From IMG/VR virus record IMGVR_UViG_3300032038_000024, positions 37,689-101,688 of that record: a stretch of DNA of 64,000 nucleotides; one strand, given 5' to 3'. Below the pieces are notes generated by a model, which made no database searches, was not told the origin of the DNA, and saw nothing but the letters and a program-made list of their open reading frames with translations. Position numbers and translations under genes: made by a program. Of the stretch, positions 14,122 through 63,370 are shown in pieces; positions within the stretch are counted from its first letter, which is position 1, and each line of letters opens with the position of its first letter. Origin of the DNA: a virus. Its lineage: Duplodnaviria; Heunggongvirae; Uroviricota; Caudoviricetes.

Positions 14122-14145
14122 CAATTTAATAAAAATAAAATTTTT
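14122..14145 (-). promoter_or_regulatory. phage-type promoter element upstream of the sheath gene
   Basis: − sense AAAAATTTTATTTTTATTAAATTG. Confidence 0.35.
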
Positions 14146-14202
14146 GATGCCGACTTGAAAATTTTTGTTTCAAGTTTTATTATTAATATTGTTACTTTAA
14201 AC

Positions 14203-14236
14203 ACAAAAAAGGAACAGTTCTCGCGAACTGTTCCAA
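14203..14236 (-). terminator. rho-independent terminator after the major capsid gene
   Basis: GGAACAGTTC-TCGC-GAACTGTTCC, a 10-bp stem with a U-run in − sense. A second weaker hairpin lies at 14154-14174. Confidence 0.7.
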
Positions 14237-14296
14237 TTGTGATTCTTGCGAATCGGATTAATATATAGAGGCGAGAATTTTGCCTTAATATATATC

Positions 14297-16066
14297 TTAG
14301 ATAATTCCAAATGCTGAGCCAACTGCAATTGTAAGATATTGAAGTTCTGGATAGAAACCAGCTTCTGCAATTGTATAACGGCTGTTAACCAACATCTTAG
14401 GAGCCATTGTACCTTCAGCAGTAATAGAAACTGTGTCAGCAAGAATGTATGGCATGAAGATAACACCTGGTGAGTTACCGTCACCTTTACGACCGATACA
14501 GATACGTGTGTCGTTCCAGTCCATATATGGGTCAACATAAATTTGAAGACCTGCAACTGTACCTGCGTGGTATAAGTTTTGGTTGTTAGCTTGAGACATT
14601 GTGTTAAGCATTGGAGCTACAACATAACCAGAAACGTCTTGTAAAGCAGTAGCAACTTGACCGTTTGTTACAACCCATGTTGGACGTCCACGACGACCTA
14701 CTAATTGGATTAAGTTAGCAGCAGCAAGTAACTTAGACATAATACGACGTTGTCTTGTTGCAAGATTTTCAGCAGAAGTATTAACTTCAGCGTTCTTTAC
14801 ATTACCCCAAGTTGCCTTGTGATCGTGTCCATAAATATCTGTGAAGTGTGGAACACCTGGGAATGCTTGTGCAAATGGAATATCAGCACCACCATTACCC
14901 ATGTAAAGGTTAAGATCTACACCTTGACGAGCTTTTTGTTGAACAGCGTTAGTAACACCAAGTGCAAATACTCTTTCAAGAATACGTTGGTTGATGTGTT
15001 GTGTAATTTCGTTTTGAAGAGCTTCCATAACCTTAGATACAGCATCAACACCGTATAATGGAAGATCTTGTAATTGCTGACGAGTTACAGTACCTGTTAC
15101 TTCATATGAACCCATTTGGATCCACTTGCTGAATAAACGAAGACCAATAACATTACCTGTACCAGTTTCGTTTTGAGCACGTGTCATAGGATTCTTACCA
15201 CCATCGAAGAAGTTTGCGAAACCATCAACAAGATCTACAGAAGTTTGTACGAAGTCAGCAACAACTTCTTGTGCAGCTTTACCTTCAGCAGCTTCTTCAA
15301 GAGCAATTGTATAAGTTCCAATCTTTACAGAATCAGCAGCAGCAAATTCTTCGCGAATTGACTTGTTAGCAGCAGAGCATTCTACAACTTTAACAAGTGG
15401 GCAAGCGTCCATACGACCAAGCATAATAAACTTACCTTTGAAACCACCAACTTCTACAGCAGCATCAGCAGCAATTGTACCGTCTTCAATCTTTGTACGA
15501 ATACCAGCAATTTGTTCAAGTGTAAGACCTTTAATCTTAATGTAGATAGGCTTGTTTTCATTACCTTCACCCTTACCATCAAATGATGTTTCGTTTACAC
15601 GACCAAGTTTACCACCAGCATATGGGAAGTCCATATATGTTAACATAGCCCAAGGACCCTTAGAAGGAATAACTGGAACAAGTTCAAGACCAATAGTTAA
15701 CAATGCAATGTTAAGAGCCATTGGAAGAGTAGATACTGGAATATCACCAGAACCTGGAGTTTGACCCCAGAATGAACCTGTTGGGTTAGCAGCATTGTAT
15801 GGAGCTGTGCTCATTGGGTCTAATTGACTTGGAGCTGTAGGATTACCCATACCAAGTGTGTTCATTGGAGTTGTATAGATAGGACCTACGCCTGGGTGTT
15901 GAGCTGAAACAGCAACATTACCACCGTTAATACCAATTTGAGATTCATGAATTTCATGAATAGCAGCATATTGAGAAACCCAGTTAAGTTTTTCCTGGTC
16001 ATTAACGTTGAAGTTCTCCTTCAACATTTTTTCCCATGTAACTGCGCCATTTTGTTCATTAAACAT
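14297..16066 (-). CDS. major capsid protein, T4 gp23-like
   Basis: RRGRPTWVVTNGQVATALQDVSGYVVAP versus gp23 RGEGNFIIASRNVVNVLASVDTGISYAAQ; YHAGTVAGLQIYVDPYMDWNDTRICIGRKG versus VFAGVLGGKYRVYIDQYAKQDYFTVGYKG. ATG at 16066; the track start 16081 is TTG. Confidence 0.8.
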   Translation of the reverse strand: MFNEQNGAVTWEKMLKENFNVNDQEKLNWVSQYAAIHEIHESQIGINGGNVAVSAQHPGVGPIYTTPMNTLGMGNPTAPSQLDPMSTAPYNAANPTGSFWGQTPGSGDIPVSTLPMALNIALLTIGLELVPVIPSKGPWAMLTYMDFPYAGGKLGRVNETSFDGKGEGNENKPIYIKIKGLTLEQIAGIRTKIEDGTIAADAAVEVGGFKGKFIMLGRMDACPLVKVVECSAANKSIREEFAAADSVKIGTYTIALEEAAEGKAAQEVVADFVQTSVDLVDGFANFFDGGKNPMTRAQNETGTGNVIGLRLFSKWIQMGSYEVTGTVTRQQLQDLPLYGVDAVSKVMEALQNEITQHINQRILERVFALGVTNAVQQKARQGVDLNLYMGNGGADIPFAQAFPGVPHFTDIYGHDHKATWGNVKNAEVNTSAENLATRQRRIMSKLLAAANLIQLVGRRGRPTWVVTNGQVATALQDVSGYVVAPMLNTMSQANNQNLYHAGTVAGLQIYVDPYMDWNDTRICIGRKGDGNSPGVIFMPYILADTVSITAEGTMAPKMLVNSRYTIAEAGFYPELQYLTIAVGSAFGII

Positions 16067-16109
16067 ATTATTTATAATCAAAATTTATTTGTTATTTCTC
16101 TGTTTGAGA

Positions 16110-16138
16110 ATTTAATTTATATAAAAATAAAAATTTTC
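16110..16138 (-). promoter_or_regulatory. phage-type (late-like) promoter for the capsid gene
   Basis: − sense TTTTATTTTTATATAAATTAAAT, which contains TATAAAT. Confidence 0.45.
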
Positions 16139-16171: not shown

Positions 16172-17860
16172 TTATGCATTTAAGCCACGAAGTCTCTTCA
16201 TGTTAGCAATAATGCTGTTTTGATAATTTTCAACAGGATTCTTTGATTCTACAACTGGCTTTGTTTCTTCAGCTTTCTTGCCAAAATCAACATTAGCCCA
16301 GAATGATTCAAGTACACCTTCTTTTGTGAAATCATACATCTTTGAACTTCTAATGATGTTCTGTTGTGCAGCTTCATTAAGTAATTCCCATGATGGACGA
16401 TATTCAGCTGGCATGTTTTCTACAACATAAACTCCTTTGTACTTGTTTTCAGCATTATGTTCTTCAACAATCTTTTGAACATCTGTATTGCCTTCAGCAG
16501 CTATAGATTCAAGTAAACCATCAATTTCATCAAGGCGACCAGCCTTTTGAGATTCCATAAATGCAGAAACATTTTCGTTTACTTTTTGTTCAATAATTGC
16601 TGATTGTTCTGGAGTATATTCTTCCATTAACCAGTTCTCCATAGTAGGAGCAAATTCTTCAGTAATCCAACCTTGAATTTCTGGAGCAAATTCTTCAGTT
16701 ACCCAGTTTTGTAATTCAGGTGAATATTCTTCAACAATCCAGTTTTGTACTTCTGGAGCAAATTCTTCAACTACCCAATTTTGTACTTCAGGTGCAAATT
16801 CCTCTACAACCCAATCTTGTACTAATGGAGCAAATTCTTCAGTTACCCAAGACTTCATTTGAGAAGTAAATTCATCATTAATCCAAGTCTTAACAGCTTC
16901 CTGAATTTCTTCTGATGAATTACCATTCATCTTTTCAGTAATAACTGTATTTAAACCTTCATTGATTTTGTTTTGGAAATCAGGTGCAAATTCTTCAGTA
17001 ATCCACTTTTGAATACCTTCATAATTTGTAGGCTTAATAGACTTTACTTCGTTTAAAGATTCTTGAGCTACATGAAGCTCAGCTTCGAGAGATGTTACTT
17101 TCTCAGTAAGCTTATCAATAGCTTCTTTAAGTTCTTTCATATCGATGTCTTTATTGTCATTATTTTTGTTATCGTCTTTCTTAGGATCATCCTTAGGATC
17201 TCCCTTAGGTTCTTCCTCAGGTTTGTCATCATTCTTAGGTTCGTCTTTTGGCTTGTCGTCGTTCTTATCTTTATCATCGATAAGATCATCACCTTCAACA
17301 ATAACCCAAGTTTCATTACTATCTTCAAGACCTTCATTCAAGCATTCAAGAGTTTGATTAGTCTTTAATGTAAGCTTAGCTTGACTGAAACCAGGAGTAC
17401 CTACCAAGTCATATGTCTGTATAGTTGATAAAGTTACACGACCTTCATTAGTAATTGTACCTGCACCACGTGACGAAATGAAAAGTGGAAGACCGCCTTC
17501 AACGATAGCTTTAGCAATTTGACCTTTTGGAGTATTTAAAAGAACAATAGAACCTGTAATTGTACCATCTTCATTCATCTGAATATCTTCAATTTTGTGA
17601 GAAACATTCTCCAAATTAATATTCATTGAATTAGGATGTTCCAATTCTCCAGGACAACCTGATTCTTTTATTTTCTTTTGTAAAGATTCAACCATCTGTG
17701 CATAATTGTCTTTATCATACACACGATTATTTTGATTCTTTATTCCACAAACTCCAAATACACCTTGCAAACGCATTAAACCATCGCCTTTAGCTTCTGA
17801 CACTTGAAGATTTGAAACGCTTCCCAAAGTCTCATAAACCAAGCAACGTTTATCTGTCAT
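16172..17860 (-). CDS. prohead core protease (gp21/S77-like) fused to a repeat-containing scaffold-like C-terminal region
   Basis: GELEHP...ISSRGAGTITNEG versus gp21 GELNHP...VSSRGLGSLTDTNEG. Then a KD/PE-rich linker, a coiled coil and 8 tandem 12-aa repeats. Confidence 0.7.
   Translation of the reverse strand: MTDKRCLVYETLGSVSNLQVSEAKGDGLMRLQGVFGVCGIKNQNNRVYDKDNYAQMVESLQKKIKESGCPGELEHPNSMNINLENVSHKIEDIQMNEDGTITGSIVLLNTPKGQIAKAIVEGGLPLFISSRGAGTITNEGRVTLSTIQTYDLVGTPGFSQAKLTLKTNQTLECLNEGLEDSNETWVIVEGDDLIDDKDKNDDKPKDEPKNDDKPEEEPKGDPKDDPKKDDNKNNDNKDIDMKELKEAIDKLTEKVTSLEAELHVAQESLNEVKSIKPTNYEGIQKWITEEFAPDFQNKINEGLNTVITEKMNGNSSEEIQEAVKTWINDEFTSQMKSWVTEEFAPLVQDWVVEEFAPEVQNWVVEEFAPEVQNWIVEEYSPELQNWVTEEFAPEIQGWITEEFAPTMENWLMEEYTPEQSAIIEQKVNENVSAFMESQKAGRLDEIDGLLESIAAEGNTDVQKIVEEHNAENKYKGVYVVENMPAEYRPSWELLNEAAQQNIIRSSKMYDFTKEGVLESFWANVDFGKKAEETKPVVESKNPVENYQNSIIANMKRLRGLNA
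16611..16898. repeat. 8 tandem 36-nt in-frame coding repeats (protein W-V/I-V/T-EEFAPE-V/I-QN)
   Basis: Read directly: GGAGCAAATTCTTCAGTTACCCAGTTTTGTAATTCA-type units with period 36. Confidence 0.85.
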
Positions 17861-17997
17861 ATGCTACAATATATGTATATTTTTGTTATATGTTGCAAAT
17901 CAAATAAAAATAATATAACTAAATCACATTTATGATTTTTTAAGTCATATATTTTAATAAAAATAAATATTTTAAGACCTAATGTATTAAAAATAAA

Positions 17998-18022
17998 AGA
18001 GAGCAACATTAGTTGCCCTCTT
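17998..18022 (-). terminator. rho-independent terminator
   Basis: AGAGAGCAAC-ATTA-GTTGCCCTCT with one mismatch, then a U-run in − sense, directly after the stop at 18031. Confidence 0.55.
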
Positions 18023-26043: not shown

Positions 26044-26247
26044 TTAATCATGCCATGGTGTATCGTCTGTCCAAGGATATTCGTCTGCCCAATATCCATT
26101 ATAGTAACATGACAATATCATTTCACCTAAAGCTCCTAAAGGCCAAATTTTAATACCTCTCAAATATATTTCAGCAATTGATTGGTCTTCAAAATATACT
26201 CTATGTAAATTTGTAATTTTTCCTTTAAAATTAGAACGTTTAATCAT
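26044..26247 (-). CDS. small protein (possible fibre assembly factor)
   Basis: 67 aa; TAATG coupling with the upstream gene. Confidence 0.4.
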   Translation of the reverse strand: MIKRSNFKGKITNLHRVYFEDQSIAEIYLRGIKIWPLGALGEMILSCYYNGYWADEYPWTDDTPWHD

Positions 26248-28661
26248 TATCTTGATATATCTTTTCTATTTGTATCCATTGCTATATATTGCTCAACTGA
26301 AGCATCAGGAGCAGAAACAGTAATATTTGAAGATGGTGTTACATTTGTATTATAATGGAAATTTAATGCATTTTCTAAATTAATTGTATTAACTGCTGCA
26401 ATTGAACCAGCAATAATTATGCCTTTTAATCCATTATGTATAGTATATATGGAACCTTTTGATGCTTTACCATTTCTTCCATATATATCTGCAAACCCAC
26501 TATTCTTTTTTTCTAATTCTGTTGTTCCTGTTGTAGGACCTACTGTTGTATATACACAGTTATCTCTAACAACACAAAATCCTGAAAATGGTTTAATATC
26601 TTCAACAGTATATTTTCCGTTAGGATTTTTAACATCACTATTAATAAAATCAAAATCTATCCAATCTTGTAAAATACTTCCATTAACAATACAATCATAT
26701 CCAATACAAAATGCATTTGATTTTATTCCACGTTGACCACATTTTGTTACAATTATACTTCCTTTTGAATCATTTATTTTAACTGTACCACCATCAATAC
26801 CATCTCCTAAACTTGATGTTATATATAATACTGTTTCATTTTTTGCTTCAATATCAATATTATTTTCTGATTTTATACAGTCTCCTAAATATGTTGTTGC
26901 TGAAATAAATTCAACAGTTTCATTTTTATTTTCAATTATATTAATACCTGTTTTTGAAATAACTTTTACTTTACCGTATGCTTTACCATTATATTCTTCA
27001 GGATTAAAATAAATATTAGGAACATTTAATGCAGTTGTTAAATAAGCATTATTTAATTGAATAGTACAATCTTGTTTTGGTGCAGTTATAAGTTCTATAG
27101 GTTTATCAATAACACCAGAAATCGTTATAAATTGACAATCAGTTACATATCTATCACCTGTAACTGAAATTTCAATTTCGTCAGCTTCATCAGGATGATC
27201 CATATCATATTTTGATGCATACCCAATAATTGAAGAAGATTTAACACCTAAAACAGATTTAAATGTATTAATTGACAATTCACTCATATTATTCATTGTC
27301 ATATTACCGCTATTTCCTACAGTAATATGTTTTGAATAAAATCCTGGGTTTTTACTATCAAATAAATCTCCACTTAAATTATATCCATAAAAACTTCCTC
27401 TGAATAATAATATTTTACCAGTATTACCAGTACCTAATCCATCATTACCTTGGTTAACATAAACTGTACCGTCATGTACAGTAATGTTTTTGCCATGAAT
27501 GCCATCATGTACACATTCACAATAAATATGAGGACCACAAATATTTGTTTCTGTACCTCTTATACAGTGTCCACCAAGATTTTTTAATGCAATATAGCCA
27601 GTTCCTTTTATTGTTAAATCATGCATAGAATATATTGCACCTGGTTGTGGCACATCTTCTACTCTTGGCTCATTTTTGTTACATAATATAATGTTCTTAG
27701 AATTTCTTGCAATATTAATAATTAAACCTTGATAACCTTTATTTTCTTCTGGTGTTTTATATGTAATAGCAGTATTATTATCAGATACAATTGTAACATT
27801 ATTTAAAATAAGTTCAGTATCTCCATAAGATTTCATTAAATCTGTATCATATATGGTTGTATCTATTTCTAATTCACCATATAATATACCTGATATTGTA
27901 TATGGAGTACTACTTGGTGATAATGTAATTTTACCATTTGTTGTATATTTTACACCATTAATTGTTAAGTTTGTAGATAATACTGTATCACCACCTGGAG
28001 TATCACCACCTCCATTATTTATAATGATATAATCAGGTTCACCTGTTATAAAATATAATGTATTAGCACTATATGAAGTTAATGCATCATATTCTTCTTT
28101 TGACATTACTGCATGTTTATATTCATCTTGTGAATTTACTAGTGTTTCAAGTTCATTTAATGCATTTCTTAAAGATATAATATCTGCTTTTGTAGCTGCA
28201 GCTGTTTGTCCATTATGATATGATTCTAATGTTGTAATTTTATTTTCTGCACTACTTAAACGATTTGATAAATTATCTGGTATTTCATTCATGAACGCAG
28301 ATTGTAATCCACCAATACTTGAAGTATTTTGTGATATACGACTAGATAAATTATCTAATTGTTGAGCTAAATCTGTAGGTATATTACCACCAGCAGATCC
28401 ATTTTCAATTGCTTGTTTTAAATCTGCAATAAGAGCAAGTAATTGACCAGTAGATGTTATTGGATCATCAATACCTTCAATTTCTACTTTATTCCAATCA
28501 ATATCAATTGCATTTATAATTGGTCTAACTTTAGTAATCTTACCAGATGAATCAACTCCATATTCACCACTAGATATCTTATTACCACCAGTTTTTAAAC
28601 CTGCATTAAGTATATCTTTAAATGTTACGGTTCTTCCATTATATTCTTCACTAAAATTCAT
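26247..28661 (-). CDS. tail fibre/spike protein with an N-terminal coiled coil and a beta-helix-like G/N/T-rich body
   Basis: Repeated G-x-N/T-I-x-V motifs (HGKNITVHDGTVYVNQGNDGLGTGNTG). Confidence 0.5.
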   Translation of the reverse strand: MNFSEEYNGRTVTFKDILNAGLKTGGNKISSGEYGVDSSGKITKVRPIINAIDIDWNKVEIEGIDDPITSTGQLLALIADLKQAIENGSAGGNIPTDLAQQLDNLSSRISQNTSSIGGLQSAFMNEIPDNLSNRLSSAENKITTLESYHNGQTAAATKADIISLRNALNELETLVNSQDEYKHAVMSKEEYDALTSYSANTLYFITGEPDYIIINNGGGDTPGGDTVLSTNLTINGVKYTTNGKITLSPSSTPYTISGILYGELEIDTTIYDTDLMKSYGDTELILNNVTIVSDNNTAITYKTPEENKGYQGLIINIARNSKNIILCNKNEPRVEDVPQPGAIYSMHDLTIKGTGYIALKNLGGHCIRGTETNICGPHIYCECVHDGIHGKNITVHDGTVYVNQGNDGLGTGNTGKILLFRGSFYGYNLSGDLFDSKNPGFYSKHITVGNSGNMTMNNMSELSINTFKSVLGVKSSSIIGYASKYDMDHPDEADEIEISVTGDRYVTDCQFITISGVIDKPIELITAPKQDCTIQLNNAYLTTALNVPNIYFNPEEYNGKAYGKVKVISKTGINIIENKNETVEFISATTYLGDCIKSENNIDIEAKNETVLYITSSLGDGIDGGTVKINDSKGSIIVTKCGQRGIKSNAFCIGYDCIVNGSILQDWIDFDFINSDVKNPNGKYTVEDIKPFSGFCVVRDNCVYTTVGPTTGTTELEKKNSGFADIYGRNGKASKGSIYTIHNGLKGIIIAGSIAAVNTINLENALNFHYNTNVTPSSNITVSAPDASVEQYIAMDTNRKDISR

Positions 28662-49718: not shown

Positions 49719-49742
49719 TTTTTTATTTATATAAAAATAAAC
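49719..49742 (-). promoter_or_regulatory. phage-type promoter
   Basis: − sense GTTTATTTTTATATAAATAAAAAA (contains TATAAATA). Confidence 0.45.
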
Positions 49743-49823: not shown

Positions 49824-49856
49824 CAAAAATAAAAGGAACGTTAATCACGTTCCTTT
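49824..49856 (-). terminator. hairpin terminator overlapping a gene end
   Basis: AGGAACG-TTAATCA-CGTTCCT with a U-run in − sense. Confidence 0.5.
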
Positions 49857-50899
49857 CTAACCCATATTAGAAATTCATTCCTATTTTCGTGTTCATCAAT
49901 TGAAATATAATCAGGTGTAATATCTGTTCCTTCAATTTCTTGTCCAACACAAATTATTGGACCACCTACTGGATCTATCATTGTTATCTTACCTTCATTA
50001 CGATAAAGTTTCTGAATTTTATATGGTAAGCATAATTGATAAATTGTATTTTCAGAATTTCCGTTTTGTACTAATCTTAAATAATTATCAATATTATCAC
50101 GAGTATATAATTCAATTGTCTTGTTCTTGAATATTACATCATTATGAACAATTTCCCATATAGTCTTAAATAATTCATCATAAGAACCTGAATTATCAAT
50201 TATGTAATTATAATCTTCAATATCATCAAGTTCATGTTCTGCAATATTATCTAACTGCTGAACTGAATTACGATTAATTGTTATTGTAATACCGTTATTC
50301 TCATAAATATAATTAAGTTCATGATTAAATCTATTATCAGTTATAATAACATATTTAAGATTAGGATTACGATGTTGTTCTTCTCGTATCTTATTACGAA
50401 CAATATTAACAAAAATTTGTTTATTTACATTTTGTTGTAATACATAAGTACCTACATAAACTAATATTTCTCTCAATGACATCCAATATTTAATATCATT
50501 TGTATTAGAATATCCCGAAAGATTATAATAGTAATCATCAGCTGTTACAAGATGTTCTTCATCAGGTTTTATTTCTGTATATTGAAATTTATCATTAAGA
50601 CAGATCCAAGCATTTGATTTGTTTTGATAAAATCTTTGTACAGGAATACCAAATATAGTTGAACATATTTCTTTCAATTGGTCAGCATATGCAATACATA
50701 ATACTGAAGAATCCTTATCTAATTGTGAAGGAGGAAATGTTGCAGATTGTGTAGGATTTGTATATCGTGAGAAATAATATTCTTTACATTCATCTAAAGT
50801 TTCCCAGTCTTTAGATAATATTGTCTTAAGCATCTTTGCAACAGTATCTTTACCAGATCCTGCTAAACCATTAAGACCAATGTATAAAAGTTTATTCAT
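49841..50899 (-). CDS. deoxynucleoside monophosphate kinase (T4 gp1-like N-terminal domain) with a C-terminal extension
   Basis: LYIGLNGLAGSGKDTVAKML versus T4 gp1 LIFLSGVKRSGKDTTADF. ATG at 50899. Confidence 0.6.
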   Translation of the reverse strand: MNKLLYIGLNGLAGSGKDTVAKMLKTILSKDWETLDECKEYYFSRYTNPTQSATFPPSQLDKDSSVLCIAYADQLKEICSTIFGIPVQRFYQNKSNAWICLNDKFQYTEIKPDEEHLVTADDYYYNLSGYSNTNDIKYWMSLREILVYVGTYVLQQNVNKQIFVNIVRNKIREEQHRNPNLKYVIITDNRFNHELNYIYENNGITITINRNSVQQLDNIAEHELDDIEDYNYIIDNSGSYDELFKTIWEIVHNDVIFKNKTIELYTRDNIDNYLRLVQNGNSENTIYQLCLPYKIQKLYRNEGKITMIDPVGGPIICVGQEIEGTDITPDYISIDEHENRNEFLIWVRKERD

Positions 50900-50904
50900 C
50901 AAAA

Positions 50905-50957
50905 AATATATGCATATATTTATCTAATTATATAAAAATAGACAATATATGCATATA
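50905..50957 (-). promoter_or_regulatory. promoter (50924-50944) flanked by two copies of the palindrome AATATATGCATATA
   Basis: Copies at 50905-50918 and 50944-50957; possible operator pair. Confidence 0.35.
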
Positions 50958-50979: not shown

Positions 50980-53193
50980 TTAAGCTGCTTCTTGCATTGA
51001 TACACTAAACATAGTATCTGACCAGTTATTTGTTCTCATTATTTTAATATGTTCAGCTTCAGTTAAGAATGGGTTTGAAATTTTACCTTCAGTTAATTCA
51101 GGTCTATATTGAAATTTATTCCCATTACCACTATATGTTGTTACATCATTTTGATAACCTTCATCAATTGTTTTTTCACTTCCTTGTCCAGTAGTTTGAA
51201 CACCAGTACCTGCTCCATAAAATTGATTTAAATCATGATGAGCAAAATGTTGATATATAGTTGCAGCACCTTTTGTGTACATACGACTTATTTCAGTCAA
51301 ATCACGAGGACGGGCATGTTTTAATGTTATTGATACTTTTAATTCTGACGGGAAATCATCAATACCTAATGGACCACTATGTGTTACTGTTGCATTTGTC
51401 AATATCAAATTACCCATAGCTAAAATAGGATTACGAGGGTTTCCAATTGTTACGTGCCATAATCCAACGTCATCACCGCTTAATAATGATTGCCATGCAT
51501 ATAAAGTTGGTCTTCCTAAAGCATTTTTAAGATATCCCTTTGCTGCTTCAGTAAATGCAGTTGTTGAATTTAAGCTTCTTATTTTTTCTGCTAATGCTGA
51601 ACCAGCTTCACTTAATCCATTTCCTTTAGCTAAATTCATTGCTTGTCCAATAAGGTTATTAAATGTTGAACCAATCTTACCTAATATATCTTGGAAATTA
51701 ATACCACCATCTATTAATGATGAAAAGAATCCACCAAGCTTATCGAAAGCATTATCAATAAATGCACTTGTTTTATTAAATGGACCCATATCTTGTGGTG
51801 GACCAATTAATTTTCTATCACCACCCCAGAATTTACCACGTCTATATGTTACTTCCAATATATTACCAATTAAATCTGTTAATGCAGAACGTGGATTAAT
51901 ATTGTCATAAGCACGTAATTGATATGAAAAGTTCAATGTAAATTCATGTGAGAACTCTAATTTACCTTCATATATATTTGTTGATTGAACAGTATTCGTT
52001 GGCGTATATACTTTATTATTATCATAGTTTCTTAAAAGACCATTGTTCTTACCAATACCTTGGAATGTATGATCCGATAATTGAGAACCAAGCCAGCCCC
52101 AAATACTATGATTACCTGCTTGTCCAGCATTAACTGCTTTATTATATGCAGGGTTGAATGCATTAGATATCATACCTAATATACCTGTACTTGGATCATC
52201 TGCTTGTGAATCTTGTTCTTCAATTTTTGCTTCAAGTTCTTTCCATGTTGCATGATAACTATATTTACAAATATCTTCTAATCTATTATCATCTGTTCCA
52301 AACCATGTTACAAGACGTCCAATATCACCTTCAACTTGGAATGAATGATCTCCTGCGGTTGCAACATATTTAGGAGAAGACATTTCAAATATATGATCCC
52401 CAATAGGATGAGCAAATTTTCTTAATGTAATCAAATGGTTATTTGATACTTTACCAAGATCTTTACAATACATAAAGTCAGCATATTTGTATCTTGCCAT
52501 TCCTAAAGATGAGTTTGCTGTCTTTGATAATGCACATAATGTACGAATAGAACAATCTGTAATCTGAGGATCTAATTGAGCATCTATAGTATCGTTCATT
52601 AATGGTGTATTTCTTGTAATACCTAATACGCAAACACCATACATTGGATTGAACATTGATGGTGCAACTGCTGTTTCTGCAAGTTTTGCTTTCATTGAGT
52701 CACCTTCCTTTTCAGCATTAACAATAGATTTTACTCTATTCTTATATACCCAGTCATAATCTTTTGCAAGTGCAATTACATCAGCTGGTAATTGTAATGG
52801 GTTTTCATAGAATATTGCTTCTTGTCGGTCTTCAGCAGATTGTACTCCAGTTTTATATTTACCACCACTTTTAACTTCACTTTTTTGATTACCATCTTTA
52901 TCTAAAGAATATTCTGTATATGAACCTTCTCTTTCAACAACTTTCATATCGCGGTCAGTACCAGATATCATTGTAGATGGGTTATCCACACTATGCATAT
53001 TTGGGTATTTCTGATAGTTAGAAATATTGATATTTGTTTGCTTCAACATTTCTTGTACTACAGGAATACTCTTATTCAAATTCAAAGCACCATGTTTTAT
53101 TCTTTCAATATCAAAAGTAGCTTCATAAGATTGTGACCTTGTTGAACCATACATATTCTGAGATTCATTCAAGGTGCTTGGAAATGATTTCAT
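50980..53193 (-). CDS. hypothetical virion structural protein (737 aa)
   Basis: Late-type promoter; no motif resolved. Confidence 0.45.
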   Translation of the reverse strand: MKSFPSTLNESQNMYGSTRSQSYEATFDIERIKHGALNLNKSIPVVQEMLKQTNINISNYQKYPNMHSVDNPSTMISGTDRDMKVVEREGSYTEYSLDKDGNQKSEVKSGGKYKTGVQSAEDRQEAIFYENPLQLPADVIALAKDYDWVYKNRVKSIVNAEKEGDSMKAKLAETAVAPSMFNPMYGVCVLGITRNTPLMNDTIDAQLDPQITDCSIRTLCALSKTANSSLGMARYKYADFMYCKDLGKVSNNHLITLRKFAHPIGDHIFEMSSPKYVATAGDHSFQVEGDIGRLVTWFGTDDNRLEDICKYSYHATWKELEAKIEEQDSQADDPSTGILGMISNAFNPAYNKAVNAGQAGNHSIWGWLGSQLSDHTFQGIGKNNGLLRNYDNNKVYTPTNTVQSTNIYEGKLEFSHEFTLNFSYQLRAYDNINPRSALTDLIGNILEVTYRRGKFWGGDRKLIGPPQDMGPFNKTSAFIDNAFDKLGGFFSSLIDGGINFQDILGKIGSTFNNLIGQAMNLAKGNGLSEAGSALAEKIRSLNSTTAFTEAAKGYLKNALGRPTLYAWQSLLSGDDVGLWHVTIGNPRNPILAMGNLILTNATVTHSGPLGIDDFPSELKVSITLKHARPRDLTEISRMYTKGAATIYQHFAHHDLNQFYGAGTGVQTTGQGSEKTIDEGYQNDVTTYSGNGNKFQYRPELTEGKISNPFLTEAEHIKIMRTNNWSDTMFSVSMQEAA

Positions 53194-53240: not shown

Positions 53241-53270
53241 AAAATAAAAAAGCAGCATCACTGCTGCTTC
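53241..53270 (-). terminator. hairpin terminator overlapping a stop codon
   Basis: AGCAGCA-TCAC-TGCTGCT preceded by an A-run. Confidence 0.5.
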
Positions 53271-55429: not shown

Positions 55430-55843
55430 TTACTCGAAAACTATTTTTGACTCTCTTTTAACATTTTCAATTGAGTCAGAACTATGCATAGCATTTTTCA
55501 TATCGTTCTTTCCCCATTTATCTCTAACTTTATCTTTAAGTGAATCCATTTCTTCAATTGGATCTTCACATTCCTTATAGCATTTTACGCATAAGCATTC
55601 TCCAGATGACATATATTCAACAAGATCATCATAGAAGTCTTTTCCCTTATGCATCATATATAATTGTTCAGCTTGCTCTTTTGTTAATTTTAATTTCTTT
55701 TTATCAAGAATATCCCATTCATCTTCTTCTAACATCTTGAGCCAAGCTTCTTCATGTTCTAAAAATTCAGGTTTTAATATAACGAATGAATTTACATAGT
55801 CTTCTTTCGATTCGTTAATTATGTAGTCTTTTAATGATATCAT
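55430..55843 (-). CDS. hypothetical acidic protein with the shared N-terminal motif (MISLKDYIINE)
   Basis: 137 aa. Confidence 0.45.
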   Translation of the reverse strand: MISLKDYIINESKEDYVNSFVILKPEFLEHEEAWLKMLEEDEWDILDKKKLKLTKEQAEQLYMMHKGKDFYDDLVEYMSSGECLCVKCYKECEDPIEEMDSLKDKVRDKWGKNDMKNAMHSSDSIENVKRESKIVFE

Positions 55844-55859: not shown

Positions 55860-55905
55860 CTATATTTAAAAATAACAAAAAGAGTAACCGAAGCTACTCT
55901 TTTAC
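55860..55905 (-). promoter_or_regulatory. promoter/terminator cassette, copy 1
   Basis: − sense hairpin AGAGTAGC-TTCG-GTTACTCT, then TTGTTATTTTTAAATATAG. Identical to 58009-58050 except for 1 nt. Confidence 0.55.
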
Positions 55906-55920: not shown

Positions 55921-57984
55921 TTATTGTTCTACCTTAGTCCAATTATACTTACCTAAGTAATAATATCCTGTATCCATCCATGTATCATAACCAGTACTAC
56001 CACTTGGCACTGTTAATGTACCACCCATTTTCACATCTTTGAATGTATTGTCATATATAATAGGTGCAGTCATAGCATTAGACACTATATTTGTAAGACC
56101 ACTACAAGCAGCGAAAGCACTAACAGCAATGTTTGTAACACTACTACCTATGGTTACACTTGTTAAACCAGTACAATCTGCGAAAGCAGCACTTCCAATA
56201 GATGGTGTAGAATCACCTATAATTACTGTTTCAAGATTAACCCAACCAGCTCTAAAAGAAGAACTTAACTCACATTTTGCATTGTAGTTTAAAACATTTA
56301 AAGCATCAGTACTTCCGAAAGCTCCCATACCAATACTTGTAACACTATCTGGTATGGTTATACTTGTAATACCACCACAATTAGCGAAAGCACTAACACC
56401 AATACTTGTAACACTATCTGGTATATCTATACTTGTTAAACCACTACAATTATAGAAAGCACCATCATTAATAATTGTAACATTATTGCCTATAGTTATA
56501 CTTGTTAAACCAGTACAACCTACGAAAGCACCTTCACCAATGCTTGTACATAATTTTCCAATTTCAACGTTTACAAGTGTTGACTTATAATCTTGTATCA
56601 TAGTAGATGTTAATTCACCACTATCTTCAAGCTCAACAACACTGTCGTCATTTAATGTAAGTTTGCAGAAGAAAGAAGGTTCAACTTTAGTCCAATTATA
56701 CTTACCTAAGTAGTAATCTTCAGCACTCATCCATGTATCATATCCTGTACTACCACTTGGTACTGTTAATGTACCACCAGTTTTTATATTTTGGAATGTA
56801 AAACTTTCTATTGTAGGTGCAGTTATTGCATTAGATACTATACTTGCTAAACTACTACAATCTCTAAAAGCAAAATTACCAATACTTGTAACACTATCTG
56901 GTATATCTATAATTGTTAGACTACTACAATCTTGGAACGCATAATTACCTATACTTGTAACACCACTGCCTATTGTTACACTTGTTAAACTGCTACACCC
57001 ATTAAAAACATTAGCATCAATGCTTGTAACACTATCAGGTATATCTATACTTGTTAAATTAGTACAGCCGTAGAAAGCACTATCATCAATGCTTGTAACA
57101 CTATCTGGTATATCTATACTTGTTAAACCTATACAATTACTGAAAGCAGAATAACCAATGCTTGTAACACTATCAGGTATAATTGTGTTTTTACAACATT
57201 GTATAATTGCATTAGTACTTGTATTAATAATTCCATTACAATTGTTACGTGAGTCATATACTGTATTATTACTATCAACTGTCATACTTGTAAGATTATC
57301 ACAACCTGAGAAAGCATTATTTCCGATGCTTGTAACACTACTACCTATAGTTACACTTGTAAGACCATTACAACCGCGGAAAGCATACTGACTAATGTTT
57401 GTAACACTATCTGGTATAATTATACTTGTTAAACCACTACAATTTTCAAAAGCATAGCTATTAATATTTGTAACACTATCAGGTATATCTATACTTGTTA
57501 ATGAACCACAACTATCAAAAGCATTATTTCCGATGCTTGTAACACTACTACCTATAGTTACACTTGTAAGACCACTACAGTTATTGAAAACATTATAACT
57601 AATATTTGTAACACTATTTGGTATTATACACTCTATTAAATTACTATTATAAAACACAGGAGCTTGATTACCTAATTTTGTTTCATCATATAACTCATAC
57701 TTAACTGTATGTTCACCTGTTGTGTTAAATGTATAGGCAGCTACAAGTTCATCTAACATAACACCATCAATTTCCATTGACTTAAATATATTCTCCTCAA
57801 AGTTTGTTCTTAATGTTGTAGGAGAAGATGTACTTGTTACATTATACTTACATACAAGCTTTGTTTCTGGTACATAAGGATTGTAACTCACACCCATGGT
57901 TTCTTCTATCAAAGACACATTAGGCAAATCTAATGTTGCTGCATTATAAGCTGCAGCTGTTTCAAATAATGTTATATATTTCAT
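55921..57984 (-). CDS. BspA-like leucine-rich-repeat (LRR_5) surface/adhesin-type protein with an internal tandem duplication
   Basis: About 20 repeats of IPDSVTSIGNxAFxxCxxLTSx. Two copies of the LRR block plus a GGTLTVPSGSTGYDTWM...YYLGKYNWTKVE module; at DNA level 55937-56687 repeats 56687 onward. Confidence 0.7.
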   Translation of the reverse strand: MKYITLFETAAAYNAATLDLPNVSLIEETMGVSYNPYVPETKLVCKYNVTSTSSPTTLRTNFEENIFKSMEIDGVMLDELVAAYTFNTTGEHTVKYELYDETKLGNQAPVFYNSNLIECIIPNSVTNISYNVFNNCSGLTSVTIGSSVTSIGNNAFDSCGSLTSIDIPDSVTNINSYAFENCSGLTSIIIPDSVTNISQYAFRGCNGLTSVTIGSSVTSIGNNAFSGCDNLTSMTVDSNNTVYDSRNNCNGIINTSTNAIIQCCKNTIIPDSVTSIGYSAFSNCIGLTSIDIPDSVTSIDDSAFYGCTNLTSIDIPDSVTSIDANVFNGCSSLTSVTIGSGVTSIGNYAFQDCSSLTIIDIPDSVTSIGNFAFRDCSSLASIVSNAITAPTIESFTFQNIKTGGTLTVPSGSTGYDTWMSAEDYYLGKYNWTKVEPSFFCKLTLNDDSVVELEDSGELTSTMIQDYKSTLVNVEIGKLCTSIGEGAFVGCTGLTSITIGNNVTIINDGAFYNCSGLTSIDIPDSVTSIGVSAFANCGGITSITIPDSVTSIGMGAFGSTDALNVLNYNAKCELSSSFRAGWVNLETVIIGDSTPSIGSAAFADCTGLTSVTIGSSVTNIAVSAFAACSGLTNIVSNAMTAPIIYDNTFKDVKMGGTLTVPSGSTGYDTWMDTGYYYLGKYNWTKVEQ

Positions 57985-58008: not shown

Positions 58009-58050
58009 CTATATTTAAAAATAACAAAAAGAGTAGCCGAAGCTACTCTA
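58009..58050 (-). promoter_or_regulatory. promoter/terminator cassette, copy 2
   Basis: Perfect 8-bp stem AGAGTAGC-CGAA-GCTACTCT plus CTATATTTAAAAATAACAA. Confidence 0.55.
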
Positions 58051-58052: not shown

Positions 58053-61000
58053 TTATGATATTCTAATTGTACTTGTATTCTTAAACTGATGTTGAATATC
58101 TCTGTCCAACGAATATTTAACTGTTACTTTATAATAACCACGTTCATATTTTGCATCGTTCTTAGGTAATGACAATATTGTCATTTCTCCATTAGATTCA
58201 AATGATGTATCTGTAGACATACCTAATGACATTGGATGTATATTCCATTTTGAACTTATACTTGCATTAAACGGTAATCTATCATTATTATGTAAATAAC
58301 AACAAACAATATCATCAGTCTTAAATTGATTGAAACCTTCTGAAGTATTAAATTCAAGTCTATTTATCAAATATTCTTCTGAACTCTTTTCATAATTCAA
58401 TATATACTTATTCTTTAATATCTTCTTTTTATCTGCTTCATTTCTTAATTTCAAATCTTCATTTGTTCTTATCTTATCGCAAGTTTCTTGAGAAATGTAT
58501 AATCCATACCAATAATTTTCATCATGCATCAAATAGAAGTCATAATTCAAGTATGTATCTAATTTAATTTCTTCATCATATTCATAAACACTATGTAACA
58601 ATACATTCTTCAATTCTTTGTTTTCAAAATACGAATCATATACATTAAATTTCAACTTAAAGAAATCATTATACAAATTGAATATATAAGCATTATCATT
58701 ATCTCCATACTCAAATTCTTGATTAAGATATTTTGTTTTAACAATATTCTTACCAGATTCTAATGGTTTATATTCTAATCGTTTTTCATTTACACTTATT
58801 TTAATAAATTTTGGAATTATATAAATATCTGTTCTATCATTCCAATTTATATTAGTTTCACTATTTATTGAAATAAATACTGTTATCTTCTTTTCATTTC
58901 CTGTAAATTCAAATTCTGTTCCTACTTCAGTATAATTAGTAACATTTCCATTTTCATCAATTACTTCAGTATGCATTGTTGCATATTGTTCAATATTAGT
59001 AATAAATTCCATTCTATATTTGCCCTTAATACCTGTTAAATCTTTTATAAGATAATTCTTAAATCTATATCTTGCAATATCTTCATCTTTGGCATATCTA
59101 TTACCTTTGAAATTATTTAGATAATTATCTAAATTAGCTTTAATTGTTTCATAAGAATCATTTTCGTTATATACATATCTTTCAATTTCATTCAAATAAG
59201 ATGGTAATGATTCTAAAGATAATTTATCTGCATTATACCAATACATAGAAGGATTTTGTACTGATACTAAATGATTATAAGAATTATCTTTATACATATA
59301 TTTATCATCATATTTTATTAATTCAACAATGTATTTAGATCCATTAATCTCAATATTCAAATAATATGTATTATCTTTAACAGATATAATTGAATTATTT
59401 TCTATATTGTTTTCTTTTAAGTAATTAAGATAATCACTTAAAATATAGAATCTATTTCTAACAATATGAGCTTTATGATAATAGAATGTTACAATTATCT
59501 TATTATATTCAATATTATCAATTTGATTTAATGAAATTCCTTCAATCCTATTATCTAATTCATCAAAGAATGCAATTGAATAACTTAATTTATTTGCATA
59601 ATGTTTTGATAAATCATTTAAATCACATATTTCTTTATCATCAAAACAATAAATATTTCCTTCTTCATATTCTTTAACATAAATATCAATATCTTCAAAT
59701 CCTTTATTTAAACTTTTAGATAATTGTCTATTTGCATAAAAATCATTAAGTGTCTTATATGTTATTGCACCAACACATGTTTCTTTACTTTCGATATAAT
59801 ATGTAAATTCATTTGTATCAAATTCATATAAATTAGGTACTTCCCAAATATGCATTGCTGATGTTCCTCTAATTGGATCATAACATTTTCTTGCATCACG
59901 TTTAACATAAAATCCTAATCTATCTTTAATTTCAATTACTTGTGATGGTGCTAATGGTTTATGACCATCTGCTAATGGGGATGTCCAGTATAATCCATAA
60001 GTATCTGGGAATCTTGTATCAATACTTGAATCTAATGTACCTTGTATAAATATTTTCAATTGTTCATCATTGTTAAGATCTTTTGTAACACCATGTGTAA
60101 AACGAAGACCATCAATATGCATATCAATATTATTATGGAATATTAATATGTTATTTTCAGTAATTACATTTTCATATATTCCAAATAAATGTAAAGAATT
60201 TTTATACTTAGGGTTATTTGGTAAGTTAACTAATGTTGAATATCTTGAATAAATCTTTTCACTATTTGCATAAAGTTTATCATATATTTCATAAGTATGA
60301 ATCACATCCCCATTTTCATCATATTCTTTGTATGTATTATCTAAATAATCATATTTAATATCAATTGTATCATATTTTAAGAACTCTTCAGTATCTTCAG
60401 TTTTGAATAACACTTCAGATTCTATTTCAGAAGCATTTAATATTTCATAATTTTTATCATCATTTGAACTATCAAATGTTTCTGCTAAAATAAATATATC
60501 ACCTTGATATGCACATAACAATATTGTATCATTATCATTAAGATAATCAGGGAAGAAACTAATATCATAACCTATTAAATCTTTATGTATATATACTTCA
60601 TGATTGTTTCCTAATGTATCTTTATAAATAATATATTGATAAAATTCACCATCAGTCAAAGTACCATCCATATATAACAAGTTATGATCTAAATGATATT
60701 TTAATATGGTTTGGAAATTAACATCAAAATTAATTTCATTCATATCAACTAATTGCTTATTATGCATATAAGCATTAAACATTACTTTATTGTTTTTATC
60801 ATCTAAACCTCTAATTTGTTTAAATGGTGATAGCAAATTATAATGATCCTTAAAGAATTGATATATATGTTCTGCTTCAGATAAATTAAATGATTGAATC
60901 CATGTTTCTTGATTCCATTCATTATGTATATCTTGATTTAAGTTATATGTATTATATAAGTATTGATTAATTGCTTGTAAATCATTTTTAATAAACACAG

Positions 61001-63326
61001 GATATCCCCAATTATTTGGACATATTAATATAACTGGGTTATCTATGTTGATATATTTCAATTGTCCATTATAAACAGTTGCATTATTAATGTTTAATAA
61101 TTTATCTTCTGAATAATTATAAACATAATATGTTGATGATTCTTCATTATCCCAGTTAATTGTCCAAGATAGTTTTATTTCATTATTAAACTTATCTAAT
61201 TCTTTAATATATGAATTATCTAATAAATAACAAACATAATCATTTGGTAAATTAAATATATAACTGTTAAATATTGATGGCTGTTTAAATAATGAATTAC
61301 TATAATCTAAATTTTGATTATTTATTTTATATGTATCATTAGCACCACAGAATATTAAATTATGAATACTATTATCATTTTTATTTGTTATCTTACTAAA
61401 TAAGTAATTACGATCATTGAAATAATAACGATACTTAAGCGTTCCAAAATCAATTGTAGGATTATGAATCTTTAACTTAAAATCATATTCATACCATTTA
61501 TTGTTTACTAACAACTTAATAATAAAATCATTATTTACCCAATATTCAAAATATTTTGTTTCAACATTATTTTCAGTTGTAATAATATTTAACTTTTTAG
61601 GATATATAATAAAGTTACGATATGTTTTATTTTCACATTGATAGAAGTTAAAATGTGATTCATATAATACTTCATTATTTGCTGCCTTTTGTAATAAAAG
61701 AACACAATTAAAATATCCTTTATTAAATTCATTATTAATAAATTGAACTGGAATATTTACACAAGTATCATTAAGATAATACCATTCTCTATTATCTTCA
61801 TCAATATTTGTTGTTCCTAATTCAAATTCATTAAAGTATTCATCTATATAATGTATTTGCTTTGTAAAATAATGTAATCCGTTACCTTTGAATTCAACTT
61901 CTCTTTTATCATTCAAGACAATAGATGGCTGATTTTCAATAATATGTAATGAATTTGTTAATTTAATATTATTTGCAAATACACGGTATCCTAATGATGT
62001 ATGATGAATATTTAAGTGTATTGGTAAAAAGTATTTCTTATAATAATAAGCAAGACATACTAATTTAACACCTAATTCATTAAATGAAAAATCAAAATAA
62101 GGTTTCCAATACCAATATTTTTCATCATCATTTTCAATAGGCATATCATGATTTCCTATTTTGATTTTCTGATAATAATCTAATAATGAAAGCATCTTAG
62201 GTCTGTTTTCTCCATAAAAGAATGATTTATTACTCATATTCTTACTTAATGATGCTAATGATAAATCATCCCAACCACCTTCATTATCACAGAATGTAAA
62301 TGGATATCTTTTATCAGTTTCTTTATTTATCATTATCATTAAAGAAACAAATGCAGTTGCAATAAATGTCTTAAATGATTCAATAATATCATTTGAAATA
62401 TCAAAATAGTCTAATATGTATTGTTGCTTAAAATCATTATCAGTTCTTAATAACTTTGATATTGTTATTCTATCTCCATAACCAAACCATTTTAATGATT
62501 TAATTGCAGAATCGAAGTTACCAATTTCTCCACGAATACCCATATAGTTAAGCATATATTCTTTCATTTTTTCATTGAATAATGCTTCATTATATTCATC
62601 ATTATATAAACTTTCTGCATAAACAGATTTAAGTATATCCTTTGGTAAAGATACACCCATATTACGTCCATTAATTACAAGTTCTTCATATTCATCAATA
62701 AATTCACCACCTACTGATATATAACACCATTCATCAGTATTATTTGAATTGTTATGAATATGTATCATTAAATTTGTTATCCAAGTACCTGCTTCTTTTG
62801 ACATAGCAATTGGATAAATAGGAATCATAAGATAATTAATTGTAGTACCTGTAATATCTTGTTCATCAGCATATTTAATTTCCTCAGTTTTTACACAATA
62901 AAGATCTTCGTTAGTTAATCTTTCTTTTAAGAAACTATATTTTTCATTATATTCAATTGAACTTCCATTTGTTATAGTCTCGAACATATTCAAGTCAACA
63001 TAATCTGTCAACTTAAAGTCATCTTTAGATATTGATTTTTGTAATTCTCTTGAAGATATTAATTTGTAAACATTTGAATTATTAACATAAATTTCAATAT
63101 CTAATGCTGAATTATAATCATCTTCTAAATCTTCAATATCAAAATTCTTATTTAATTCATATAATGCATATATTGGTTTTGAATAGAAATTATTAACTGA
63201 CAACTTTGATGTATTATTTCCATCAATCCAAAATACATATGAATATTCATCATATTCATAACCAATAGGTTTCTCACTATATGAAGGTAAACTAAATATG
63301 TGACCTGTATTATCTACAAATTCCAT
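58053..63326 (-). CDS. giant (1757 aa) Asn/Tyr/Lys-rich hypothetical protein
   Basis: Uninterrupted 5.3-kb ORF in an AT-rich genome, flanked by a promoter and terminator cassette on each side. Confidence 0.55.
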   Translation of the reverse strand: MEFVDNTGHIFSLPSYSEKPIGYEYDEYSYVFWIDGNNTSKLSVNNFYSKPIYALYELNKNFDIEDLEDDYNSALDIEIYVNNSNVYKLISSRELQKSISKDDFKLTDYVDLNMFETITNGSSIEYNEKYSFLKERLTNEDLYCVKTEEIKYADEQDITGTTINYLMIPIYPIAMSKEAGTWITNLMIHIHNNSNNTDEWCYISVGGEFIDEYEELVINGRNMGVSLPKDILKSVYAESLYNDEYNEALFNEKMKEYMLNYMGIRGEIGNFDSAIKSLKWFGYGDRITISKLLRTDNDFKQQYILDYFDISNDIIESFKTFIATAFVSLMIMINKETDKRYPFTFCDNEGGWDDLSLASLSKNMSNKSFFYGENRPKMLSLLDYYQKIKIGNHDMPIENDDEKYWYWKPYFDFSFNELGVKLVCLAYYYKKYFLPIHLNIHHTSLGYRVFANNIKLTNSLHIIENQPSIVLNDKREVEFKGNGLHYFTKQIHYIDEYFNEFELGTTNIDEDNREWYYLNDTCVNIPVQFINNEFNKGYFNCVLLLQKAANNEVLYESHFNFYQCENKTYRNFIIYPKKLNIITTENNVETKYFEYWVNNDFIIKLLVNNKWYEYDFKLKIHNPTIDFGTLKYRYYFNDRNYLFSKITNKNDNSIHNLIFCGANDTYKINNQNLDYSNSLFKQPSIFNSYIFNLPNDYVCYLLDNSYIKELDKFNNEIKLSWTINWDNEESSTYYVYNYSEDKLLNINNATVYNGQLKYINIDNPVILICPNNWGYPVFIKNDLQAINQYLYNTYNLNQDIHNEWNQETWIQSFNLSEAEHIYQFFKDHYNLLSPFKQIRGLDDKNNKVMFNAYMHNKQLVDMNEINFDVNFQTILKYHLDHNLLYMDGTLTDGEFYQYIIYKDTLGNNHEVYIHKDLIGYDISFFPDYLNDNDTILLCAYQGDIFILAETFDSSNDDKNYEILNASEIESEVLFKTEDTEEFLKYDTIDIKYDYLDNTYKEYDENGDVIHTYEIYDKLYANSEKIYSRYSTLVNLPNNPKYKNSLHLFGIYENVITENNILIFHNNIDMHIDGLRFTHGVTKDLNNDEQLKIFIQGTLDSSIDTRFPDTYGLYWTSPLADGHKPLAPSQVIEIKDRLGFYVKRDARKCYDPIRGTSAMHIWEVPNLYEFDTNEFTYYIESKETCVGAITYKTLNDFYANRQLSKSLNKGFEDIDIYVKEYEEGNIYCFDDKEICDLNDLSKHYANKLSYSIAFFDELDNRIEGISLNQIDNIEYNKIIVTFYYHKAHIVRNRFYILSDYLNYLKENNIENNSIISVKDNTYYLNIEINGSKYIVELIKYDDKYMYKDNSYNHLVSVQNPSMYWYNADKLSLESLPSYLNEIERYVYNENDSYETIKANLDNYLNNFKGNRYAKDEDIARYRFKNYLIKDLTGIKGKYRMEFITNIEQYATMHTEVIDENGNVTNYTEVGTEFEFTGNEKKITVFISINSETNINWNDRTDIYIIPKFIKISVNEKRLEYKPLESGKNIVKTKYLNQEFEYGDNDNAYIFNLYNDFFKLKFNVYDSYFENKELKNVLLHSVYEYDEEIKLDTYLNYDFYLMHDENYWYGLYISQETCDKIRTNEDLKLRNEADKKKILKNKYILNYEKSSEEYLINRLEFNTSEGFNQFKTDDIVCCYLHNNDRLPFNASISSKWNIHPMSLGMSTDTSFESNGEMTILSLPKNDAKYERGYYKVTVKYSLDRDIQHQFKNTSTIRIS

Positions 63327-63350
63327 TAAGTGTAAGTTATTGTTTATTTA

Positions 63351-63370
63351 CTATATATAAAAATAATTTA
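63351..63370 (-). promoter_or_regulatory. phage-type promoter
   Basis: − sense AATTATTTTTATATATAGTAAAT, about 25 nt from the ATG. Confidence 0.45.

Follow-up and report, generated by a model that had tools for sequence, protein, structure and literature searches.

The window analysed here is a 64,000-nucleotide (nt) stretch, positions 37,689 to 101,688 of the IMG/VR virus record IMGVR_UViG_3300032038_000024, and represents only ~15% of a genome of roughly 300-440 kb. Our subject is a putative promoter element, the short AT-rich word TTATTTTTA followed by A/T bases, which precedes most structural genes of this phage and its relatives. The window is 28% GC and its genes lie nearly all on the - strand; coding sequence occupies 60.7 kb, and the intergenic DNA amounts to 5% of the length (3.2 kb), at 19% GC. 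A tail sheath gene was recognised by family match at 10901..14044, together with a gp23-type major capsid gene (14297..16081 as called, with the true ATG near 16062) and a prohead protease gene (16172..17860), all three on the - strand. At 39..1199 (-) lies a divergent sigma-70-family gene of 386 amino acids (aa), the candidate reader of the motif. Other window genes encode a BspA-type leucine-rich repeat (LRR) protein, an SPFH protein, a deoxynucleoside monophosphate (dNMP)-kinase-like protein and several peptidoglycan hydrolase-like proteins. Rfam and tRNA scans of the window returned nothing.

No near-identical phage was found by megablast of 20 kb against 50,697 phage records, and the clade from which the window comes is undescribed. 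The closest relatives are contigs from metagenomes. Capsids with 48-95% protein identity were identified on IMG/VR contigs of up to 435 kb, with the described capsid relatives (LR756500.1, Tenacibaculum phages pT24/PTm1, Chryseobacterium and Flavobacterium phages, PAU and the Lak phages) being remote, at 30-38% identity. The cultured relatives are mostly phages of Bacteroidota and a Shine-Dalgarno-like 4-mer was seen in just 1 of 64 genes, which together point to Bacteroidota as the host phylum.

TTATTTTTA is concentrated in intergenic DNA, where we counted 19 copies against 2 in coding DNA. Shuffled intergenic DNA contained a mean of 2.2 copies and a maximum of 7, so that mere AT-richness, which the earlier note had considered as a trivial source of the motif, does not account for it. 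For longer forms of the element, TTATTTTTATATA with at most one mismatch gave 13 matches against 3.5 expected, TATTTTTANATA gave 9 exact matches against 0.94 expected, all on the - strand, and all seven copies of the exact 12-mer TATTTTTATATA are intergenic. When every 8-mer of the upstream regions was scored in an unbiased scan, with a first-order Markov model of the same regions as background, TATTTTTA came out first. It was observed 16 times in the window alone (2.4 expected), in 13 of 27 upstream regions, and 85 times (16 expected) in the window plus 16 related huge-phage loci, in 73 of 200 regions; 21 of its 22 intergenic copies are sense to the downstream gene. As a positive control, the same scan of the cultured Tenacibaculum phage pT24 placed the host -7 box TATATTTG at the top (20 observed, 1.0 expected), and the host-type TAnnTTTG boxes of that phage are found 16-36 nt before small early and replication genes.

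A logo built from 90 sense intergenic copies of the window and its relatives (81 once near-duplicates were removed) gave the consensus ttT-TATTTTTA-www-A-a-a. Position -1 is T in 82% of the 90 aligned sites, and position +4 is A in 80% and a purine in 90% (p=4e-13). No -35-like box was detected in this alignment, with no column from -50 to -4 of the core above 0.3 bit. The consensus had been given earlier as a T-tract followed by TATATA(A)AT; the part that is conserved is ttTTATTTTTA-www-A and not the TATATA tail. The spacing of 20-30 nt before start codons proposed there also needs correction: the core lies mostly 20-45 nt from the start, but ~55 nt from the true ATG of the capsid gene and 85 nt from the sheath gene. 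Over all the called starts, the distance is mostly 20-60 nt, reaches up to ~130 nt and is never 10-20 nt. Because the distance to the start codon is variable and never short, the element is tied to transcription and not to translation.

TTATTTTTA thus has the behaviour of a transcription signal, in contrast to ATAACAAA, which behaves like a signal for the leader or for translation. Copies of (A)TAACAAA(TAAA) numbered 27 against 3.6 expected in the window and the related loci L001-L016, locked 20-30 nt before start codons; examples in the window are found at 16083-16097, in the capsid leader, and at 17884-17892, in the protease leader. In a system that lacks Shine-Dalgarno sequences, this word probably serves as a signal in the leader or for translation initiation. 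Between the promoter motif and ATAACAAA, the leader of the capsid mRNA also holds a small hairpin, both in the window (~16095-16108, -) and at the same place in L001-L014. Its stem varies compensatorily among relatives (TCTC/GAGA, TTATC/GATAA, GTAGT/ACTAC, TCTTC/GAAGA and TTCTTG/CAAGAA), and it may be a stabilising stem-loop at the transcript 5' end.

All ten sites listed in the earlier note are present at the coordinates given there, on the - strand and sense to the downstream gene, and copies that its list lacks were found before the protease gene, 28717..29334, 29467..29970, 50980..53193, the sigma gene and the helicase/MazG operon. The motifs and hairpins that follow are on the - strand unless marked +. 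The major capsid gene is preceded by TTATTTTTATATA at 16118..16130, which is conserved in 13 of 16 related loci, and the tail sheath gene by the variant TTATTTTTATTAA at 14126..14138, with a hairpin (14211-14234) 72 nt upstream of it. This sheath site (TTATTTTTATTAAAT) and two TAAATA sites are variants of the element. Three tandem motifs (17988-17996, 17958-17966 and 17905-17913), conserved in relatives, were found before the prohead protease gene, with a terminator-like hairpin at 17997..18022 abutting the first of them. A 50-aa open reading frame (ORF) called at 17857-18009 (-) is filled by this hairpin and the three motifs, and is therefore probably spurious. TTATTTTTATATA at 28687..28699 precedes 26247..28661 (804 aa, phage tail tip domain) and heads a gene run that takes in a 2296-aa gene. 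Two sites here were absent from the earlier list: TTATTTTTA(CTAAAC) at 29371..29379, before 28717..29334 and with a hairpin (29415-29443) 35 nt upstream, and a pair of overlapping motifs, TTATTTTTATTATTTTTA, at 30004..30021, before 29467..29970.

Further along the window, TTATTTTTATATA(TAAATA) at 44420..44432 stands at the head of an operon running from 44403 to 36706, with a terminator-like hairpin and T-run at 44449..44470, 16 nt upstream. TTATTTTTATATA(AATA) at 49728..49740, before 48801..49694, has a terminator hairpin (49831-49857) 90 nt upstream, and CTATTTTTATATA at 50929..50941, before the dNMP-kinase-like gene 49841..50902, is without an upstream hairpin. Gene 50980..53193 is preceded by two tandem motifs, TTATTTTTA at 53239-53247, overlapping a terminator tail, and TTATTTTTATATA at 53223-53235; the corresponding terminator-like hairpin and T-run were mapped upstream of both, to 53249..53270. 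TTATTTTTAAATA was found twice. One copy (58012..58024) precedes the BspA-type LRR gene 55921..57984 and lies 5 nt downstream of a terminator-like hairpin, GAGTAGC-TTCG-GCTACTC, with a T-run (58030..58049); the other (55863..55875) precedes 55430..55843 and lies 2 nt downstream of a terminator-like hairpin and T-run at 55878..55903. These two sites, listed at 58009 and 55860, are one duplicated cassette and hence not independent. The 1757-aa gene 58053..63326 has its ATG 31 nt after TTATTTTTATATA at 63354..63366, a copy with a terminator-like hairpin and T-run (63394..63417) 27 nt upstream. At the opposite end of the window, TTATTTTTA(ATAAAA) was mapped to 1328..1336, 128 nt before the sigma gene. 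On the + strand, TTATTTTTA(TATG) at 1356..1364 lies 149 nt before the + strand operon 1514..7566 (helicase, MazG), and a copy at 1485-1493 (+), also new with respect to the earlier list, precedes the same operon.

The near-identical ~53-nt terminator and promoter cassettes (GAGTAGCTTCGGYTACTCTTTTTGTTATTTTTAAATATAGATT) at 55860-55905 and 58009-58052 flank the BspA-type LRR gene, an arrangement suggesting that either the cassette or the gene has been duplicated or is mobile.

Two 20-kb scans (10001-30000 and 44001-64000) gave hairpin totals of 10 (3.2 expected) and 18 (6.1 expected); across both, motif copies are preceded by nine - strand hairpins that carry T-runs. Among the ten listed sites, a terminator hairpin is found within 30 nt upstream in five and 70-90 nt upstream in two, and three have none. 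The fusion to terminators that had been ascribed to most of the sites is thus seen in half of them, but not in the five others.

The element is conserved in position as its surroundings change. TTATTTTTA is kept before capsid orthologues down to 58% protein identity, while the bases after it vary (TATAAA, ATAAAT, ATTAAG, CTAAAT and ACAAAA) and the flanks diverge too. The TTATTTTTATTWAAATTGTAT variant before the sheath gene is also kept in relatives. On a contig whose sigma is just 43% identical to that of the window, TTTATTTTTA precedes a 644-aa gene and the neighbour of a Peptidase_S74 (tail-fibre-type) gene. In the early/replication neighbourhood of the sigma gene of a 300-kb relative, the motif was found in just 1-2 of 17 upstream regions, and another motif is used. 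The distant relatives have other top upstream words, GATATATAA in LR756500.1 and TATATTTG plus TATAAATA in pT24, with one TATTTTTA each in the 20 upstream regions of a ~41-kb stretch. No homologue of the window sigma was detected in LR756500.1 or pT24; across the whole pT24 genome no sigma is annotated, and none was detected with T4 gp55 or with the window sigma profile. pT24 (LC168164.1) also carries a repeated ~40-nt element, ACCTAGGTGCATTTTCTTTTATATATTATAAATACAAATAAC, in at least six intergenic copies. The proposal of a recurrent phage-specific promoter, made in the earlier note, is backed by the strand bias, the intergenic restriction, the variable spacing and the conservation before orthologues.

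The Bacteroidota sigma-ABfr promoter, reportedly described by Bayley in 2000, consists of a -7 box, TAnnTTTG / TAHHTTTG, with a weak -33 TTTG. In the mapped promoters of Flavobacterium, the primary-sigma -7 element is T-12 A-11 H H T-8 T-7 T-6 G-5, located 4-5 nt from the start site, and the -33 box is merely weak (PMC6847099); G-5 is near-invariant (Baez et al. 2019, PMC6847099). TATTTTTA matches this host box at all defined positions (T-12, A-11, T-8, T-7 and T-6) except the last. Indeed, the last base of TATTTTTN in upstream regions is A in 85 cases, T in 23, G in 2 and C in 2. The phage element resembles the sigma-ABfr promoter in its AT-rich upstream region and in a start-codon spacing like that of the host-type boxes in pT24. 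It differs by having A for G-5, TT fixed at the free positions and an extra conserved T-13, and by the absence of the -33 TTTG, there being no conserved upstream column. Judged by its sequence, the element is a host-type -7 box with a systematic G-to-A change and not the T4 octamer. Genuine TAHHTTTG boxes are found at other places, upstream of the sigma gene and of a few more genes. TAnnTTTG boxes are weakly enriched in the window (7 observed, 3.7 expected) and were for this reason rejected as a clean second class.

As a single query, ORF 39-1199 has no Pfam match and no PDB match. It does match the PHROG sigma factor family (E=1e-15), and 149 homologues were identified, all on phage-like contigs of up to 442 kb. 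When 20 of the homologues were combined in a profile, it matched region 2 of SigA/RpoS in the PDB (E=2e-4). Pfam Sigma70_r2 is matched by 6 of the 20 family members, the RpoD C-terminal model by 13 and TIGR02937, across regions 2-4, by all 20. The protein has a well-folded N-terminal domain of ~130 residues; its AlphaFold model has a predicted local distance difference test (pLDDT) value of 74, and the top 50 PDB matches obtained with this model in Foldseek are all primary sigma chains. The PHROG, TIGR02937, profile and Foldseek matches bear out the sigma-70-family factor noticed earlier at 39..1199, which is a divergent member of that family with sigma2 and sigma3/4-like parts. No homologue was found in the 50,697 phage records by tblastn at E<=1e-3, save a weak fragment in an unannotated metagenomic record, and no second sigma paralogue was found in the related clade sequences examined.

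Two host-type TAATTTTG boxes (about 1235-1250) lie nearer to the sigma ATG than does the motif at 1328..1336. These tandem host-type -7 boxes, TAATTTTGTAATTTTG, at 1235-1250 (-), leave 35-43 nt to the sigma gene; in the 43%-identical relative, the sigma gene has comparable TAATTTTGTA repeats in front of it (L022 ~9750-9850). The presence of host-type boxes before the sigma gene in both the window and a distant relative suggests that this gene would be transcribed early by the host holoenzyme. The TTATTTTTA copy at 1328-1336 could add positive autoregulation.

The genes found behind the element encode the sheath, the capsid, the prohead protease, tail-tip and giant virion-type proteins, the LRR protein and lysis-type products. 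That the element is a promoter is, in our view, very likely, and its dependence on a phage factor is likely. The identification of this factor with the sigma at 39-1199 is more tentative, its chances falling somewhat short of even. The reading that we favour, and hold to be probable on balance, is that of a -10-only middle/late promoter recognised by host core RNA polymerase together with a phage specificity factor, for which sigma 39-1199 is the likeliest candidate. Applying the host geometry places the transcription start 5-6 nt after the core; initiation probably takes place on or close to the conserved purine, ~4-6 nt past the core. In such a scheme, the host holoenzyme would transcribe the early genes, the sigma gene included, from host-type boxes, and the G-to-A change at -5 would keep the promoters bearing it silent for that holoenzyme. 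Structural and lysis genes, and some genes of nucleotide metabolism, would then be transcribed from their TTATTTTTA promoters by core polymerase under the direction of the phage factor. The intrinsic terminators between genes would produce many single-gene units that could be tuned separately. It is also conceivable, if rather doubtful, that the single-base switch from TAHHTTTG to TATTTTTA defines an orthogonal class served by an uncharacterised sigma family confined to the 300-440 kb phage clade. If this were true, huge phages that are devoid of an RNA polymerase would time their late genes by re-specifying one base contact of the host-type holoenzyme and not by the T4-type gp55/gp33/clamp machinery.

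Several points weigh against the -10-only promoter read through the phage sigma. Promoter activity is itself predicted from sequence patterns, and the apparent co-occurrence of sigma and motif depends on a negative tblastn at E<=1e-3, a search blind to very divergent homologues. The sigma has a region-4-like helix-turn-helix, from which a -35 box would be expected, yet the motif has no -35 partner. In addition, the same genomes contain promoter-like sites of another, bipartite class, TTGAAw-N16-18-(T)ACTATATTA, in many cases with TATTTG after it; three were located in the window and four in a relative's early region. This class may represent host-type early promoters or the real target of the sigma; if the sigma reads the bipartite class, TTATTTTTA would need another factor, for which a minimal gp55-like sigma is one candidate. 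The broad phage group is reported to carry minimal gp55-type sigmas as well as gp33 orthologues (PMC7824862). Moreover, the motif is found before non-structural operons (polynucleotide kinase, cytidylyltransferase, 44.4-36.7 kb) and possibly before the helicase operon too, and the label 'late' is not clean.

The bipartite motif, TTGAA(A/T)-16-18 nt-(T)ACTATATTA, often then continues into TATTTGTAA, a host-type TAnnTTTG box. It was mapped to 36611-36705, 45700-45780 and 54522-54581 (-) in the window and, in relatives, to L005 ~3887, L009 ~15820 and L021 ~280, ~1040, ~3520 and ~20570. The distance from its end to the start codon is 19-34 nt, and it is frequent in the early/replication region of a relative.

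Among the other explanations, the one that survives best is a T4-type late promoter, which would be served by a gp55-like sigma with gp33-like and sliding-clamp co-activators encoded elsewhere in the genome, leaving 39-1199 for another class such as the bipartite one. We regard it as unlikely. The element is without a -35 box, like T4 late promoters, and the phage combines a capsid of gp23 type with a T4-like core. Jumbo phages of this group have been reported to possess minimal sigmas and gp33 orthologues (PMC7824862), and a sigma with a region 4 suits a bipartite promoter better, such a class being present. The octamer TATAAATA is enriched in pT24 (16 observed, 4.0 expected); in the window, however, it is at chance level, with 5 intergenic copies where shuffling gives 4.8 on average. 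The link to the T4 late octamer drawn in the earlier note was not upheld, as TATAAATA is found exactly in just 2 of the 10 listed sites, in a varying register, and is not the conserved part. The core TATTTTTA is unlike the T4 octamer at three central positions. We also considered the octamer as the core of the element and rejected it, given that TATAAATA is not enriched and that the TATAAA part of the capsid promoter varies while TTATTTTTA is kept. No gp55 or gp33 PHROG match was found among the ~62 window ORFs scanned, the window being ~15% of the genome, and phmmer with T4 gp55 found nothing in ~0.6 Mb of related sequence, including the complete pT24 genome.

Host-type promoters offer a second alternative, in which the Bacteroidota primary sigma would tolerate TATTTTTA as a TAnnTTTG variant and no phage factor would be required. 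Seven of the eight positions do fit the host -7 consensus, and the start-codon spacing resembles that of the pT24 host-type boxes. However, G-5 is near-invariant in the host (PMC6847099), in contrast to the 85 A against 2 G found here. The fixed TT at the free positions and the additional conserved T upstream argue for a different specificity, and the true TAHHTTTG boxes are found apart from the element, before the sigma gene and few others; we consider this alternative improbable. Finally, it is most improbable that the element is no promoter at all, whether a by-product of AT-rich DNA or terminator T-tails or an RNA-level or operator signal (processing site, translational enhancer or regulator site): the intergenic DNA is just 19% GC, copy 53239-53247 overlaps a terminator tail and AU-rich leaders can act at the RNA level, but the 19 copies far exceed the 2.2 of shuffled intergenic DNA, a hairpin within 30 nt is missing at five of the 10 listed sites, the start-codon distance varies from 20 to 128 nt with ATAACAAA being the word locked at 20-30 nt, and the element is placed between the terminator and the next gene, where re-initiation is needed.

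Two further groups of genes were noted along the window. The giant ORFs 19116-26006 (2296 aa) and 58053-63326 (1757 aa), on the - strand, are each downstream of a promoter motif. They have no Pfam match except for one sub-threshold LRR_4 in the 2296-aa ORF; of the pair, just the 1757-aa ORF was scanned against PHROGs, and it gave no match. Both may be virion or ejected proteins. In addition, three endolysin- or peptidase-like genes (48056-48793, 53844-54521 and 54582-55241, -) are clustered within 8 kb, two of them in TTATTTTTA-headed units and one behind the second motif class.

Phage-specific promoters read via phage sigmas are of a well-known kind, and the general picture of phage transcription is unchanged by our analysis. 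Jumbo phages without an RNA polymerase are expected to use their own sigmas (PMC13282480). Our literature search gave no description of this consensus or of the target of this sigma family, and, in the literature searched, no promoter or sigma-promoter pair is described for uncultured huge-phage clades of the Bacteroidota type. The notable point, and one directly testable, is the single-base relation of the element to the Bacteroidota -7 box. The element can be used for marking late/structural genes in related metagenomic genomes and for correcting gene calls, for example that of ORF 17857-18009. If the pairing with the sigma were true, it would provide an orthogonal sigma/promoter pair for Bacteroidota genetics.

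Of the known systems, T4 late promoters (TATAAATA at -10, with gp55, gp33 and the gp45 clamp) are alike in having a single AT-rich -10-type box without a -35, placed a short way ahead of late structural genes in a myovirus whose capsid is of the gp23 type. Here, unlike in T4, a sigma with regions 2-4 is encoded, and gp55 and gp33 were not detected in the window. Extended -10 sigma-70 promoters share with the element a specificity located in and just upstream of the -10, with the -35 dispensable; the extension is a T-run here and not TGn, and any region-3-like contact would be conjectural. In the Bacillus phage SPO1, gp28 and gp33/34 are phage sigma-70-family factors with dependent promoters. 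Promoters that depend on phage sigma-70-family factors are also described for phiEco32 (gp36) and for phage 7-11 (PMC8948821, PMC12276001). The sigma family of the window is unrelated in sequence, going by the tblastn against the 50,697 phage records, the host phylum and the consensus differ, and the pairing is here a predicted one. What is common to all of them is a sigma-70-family protein of the phage's own, together with a phage-specific consensus, unlike that of the host, before middle/late genes.

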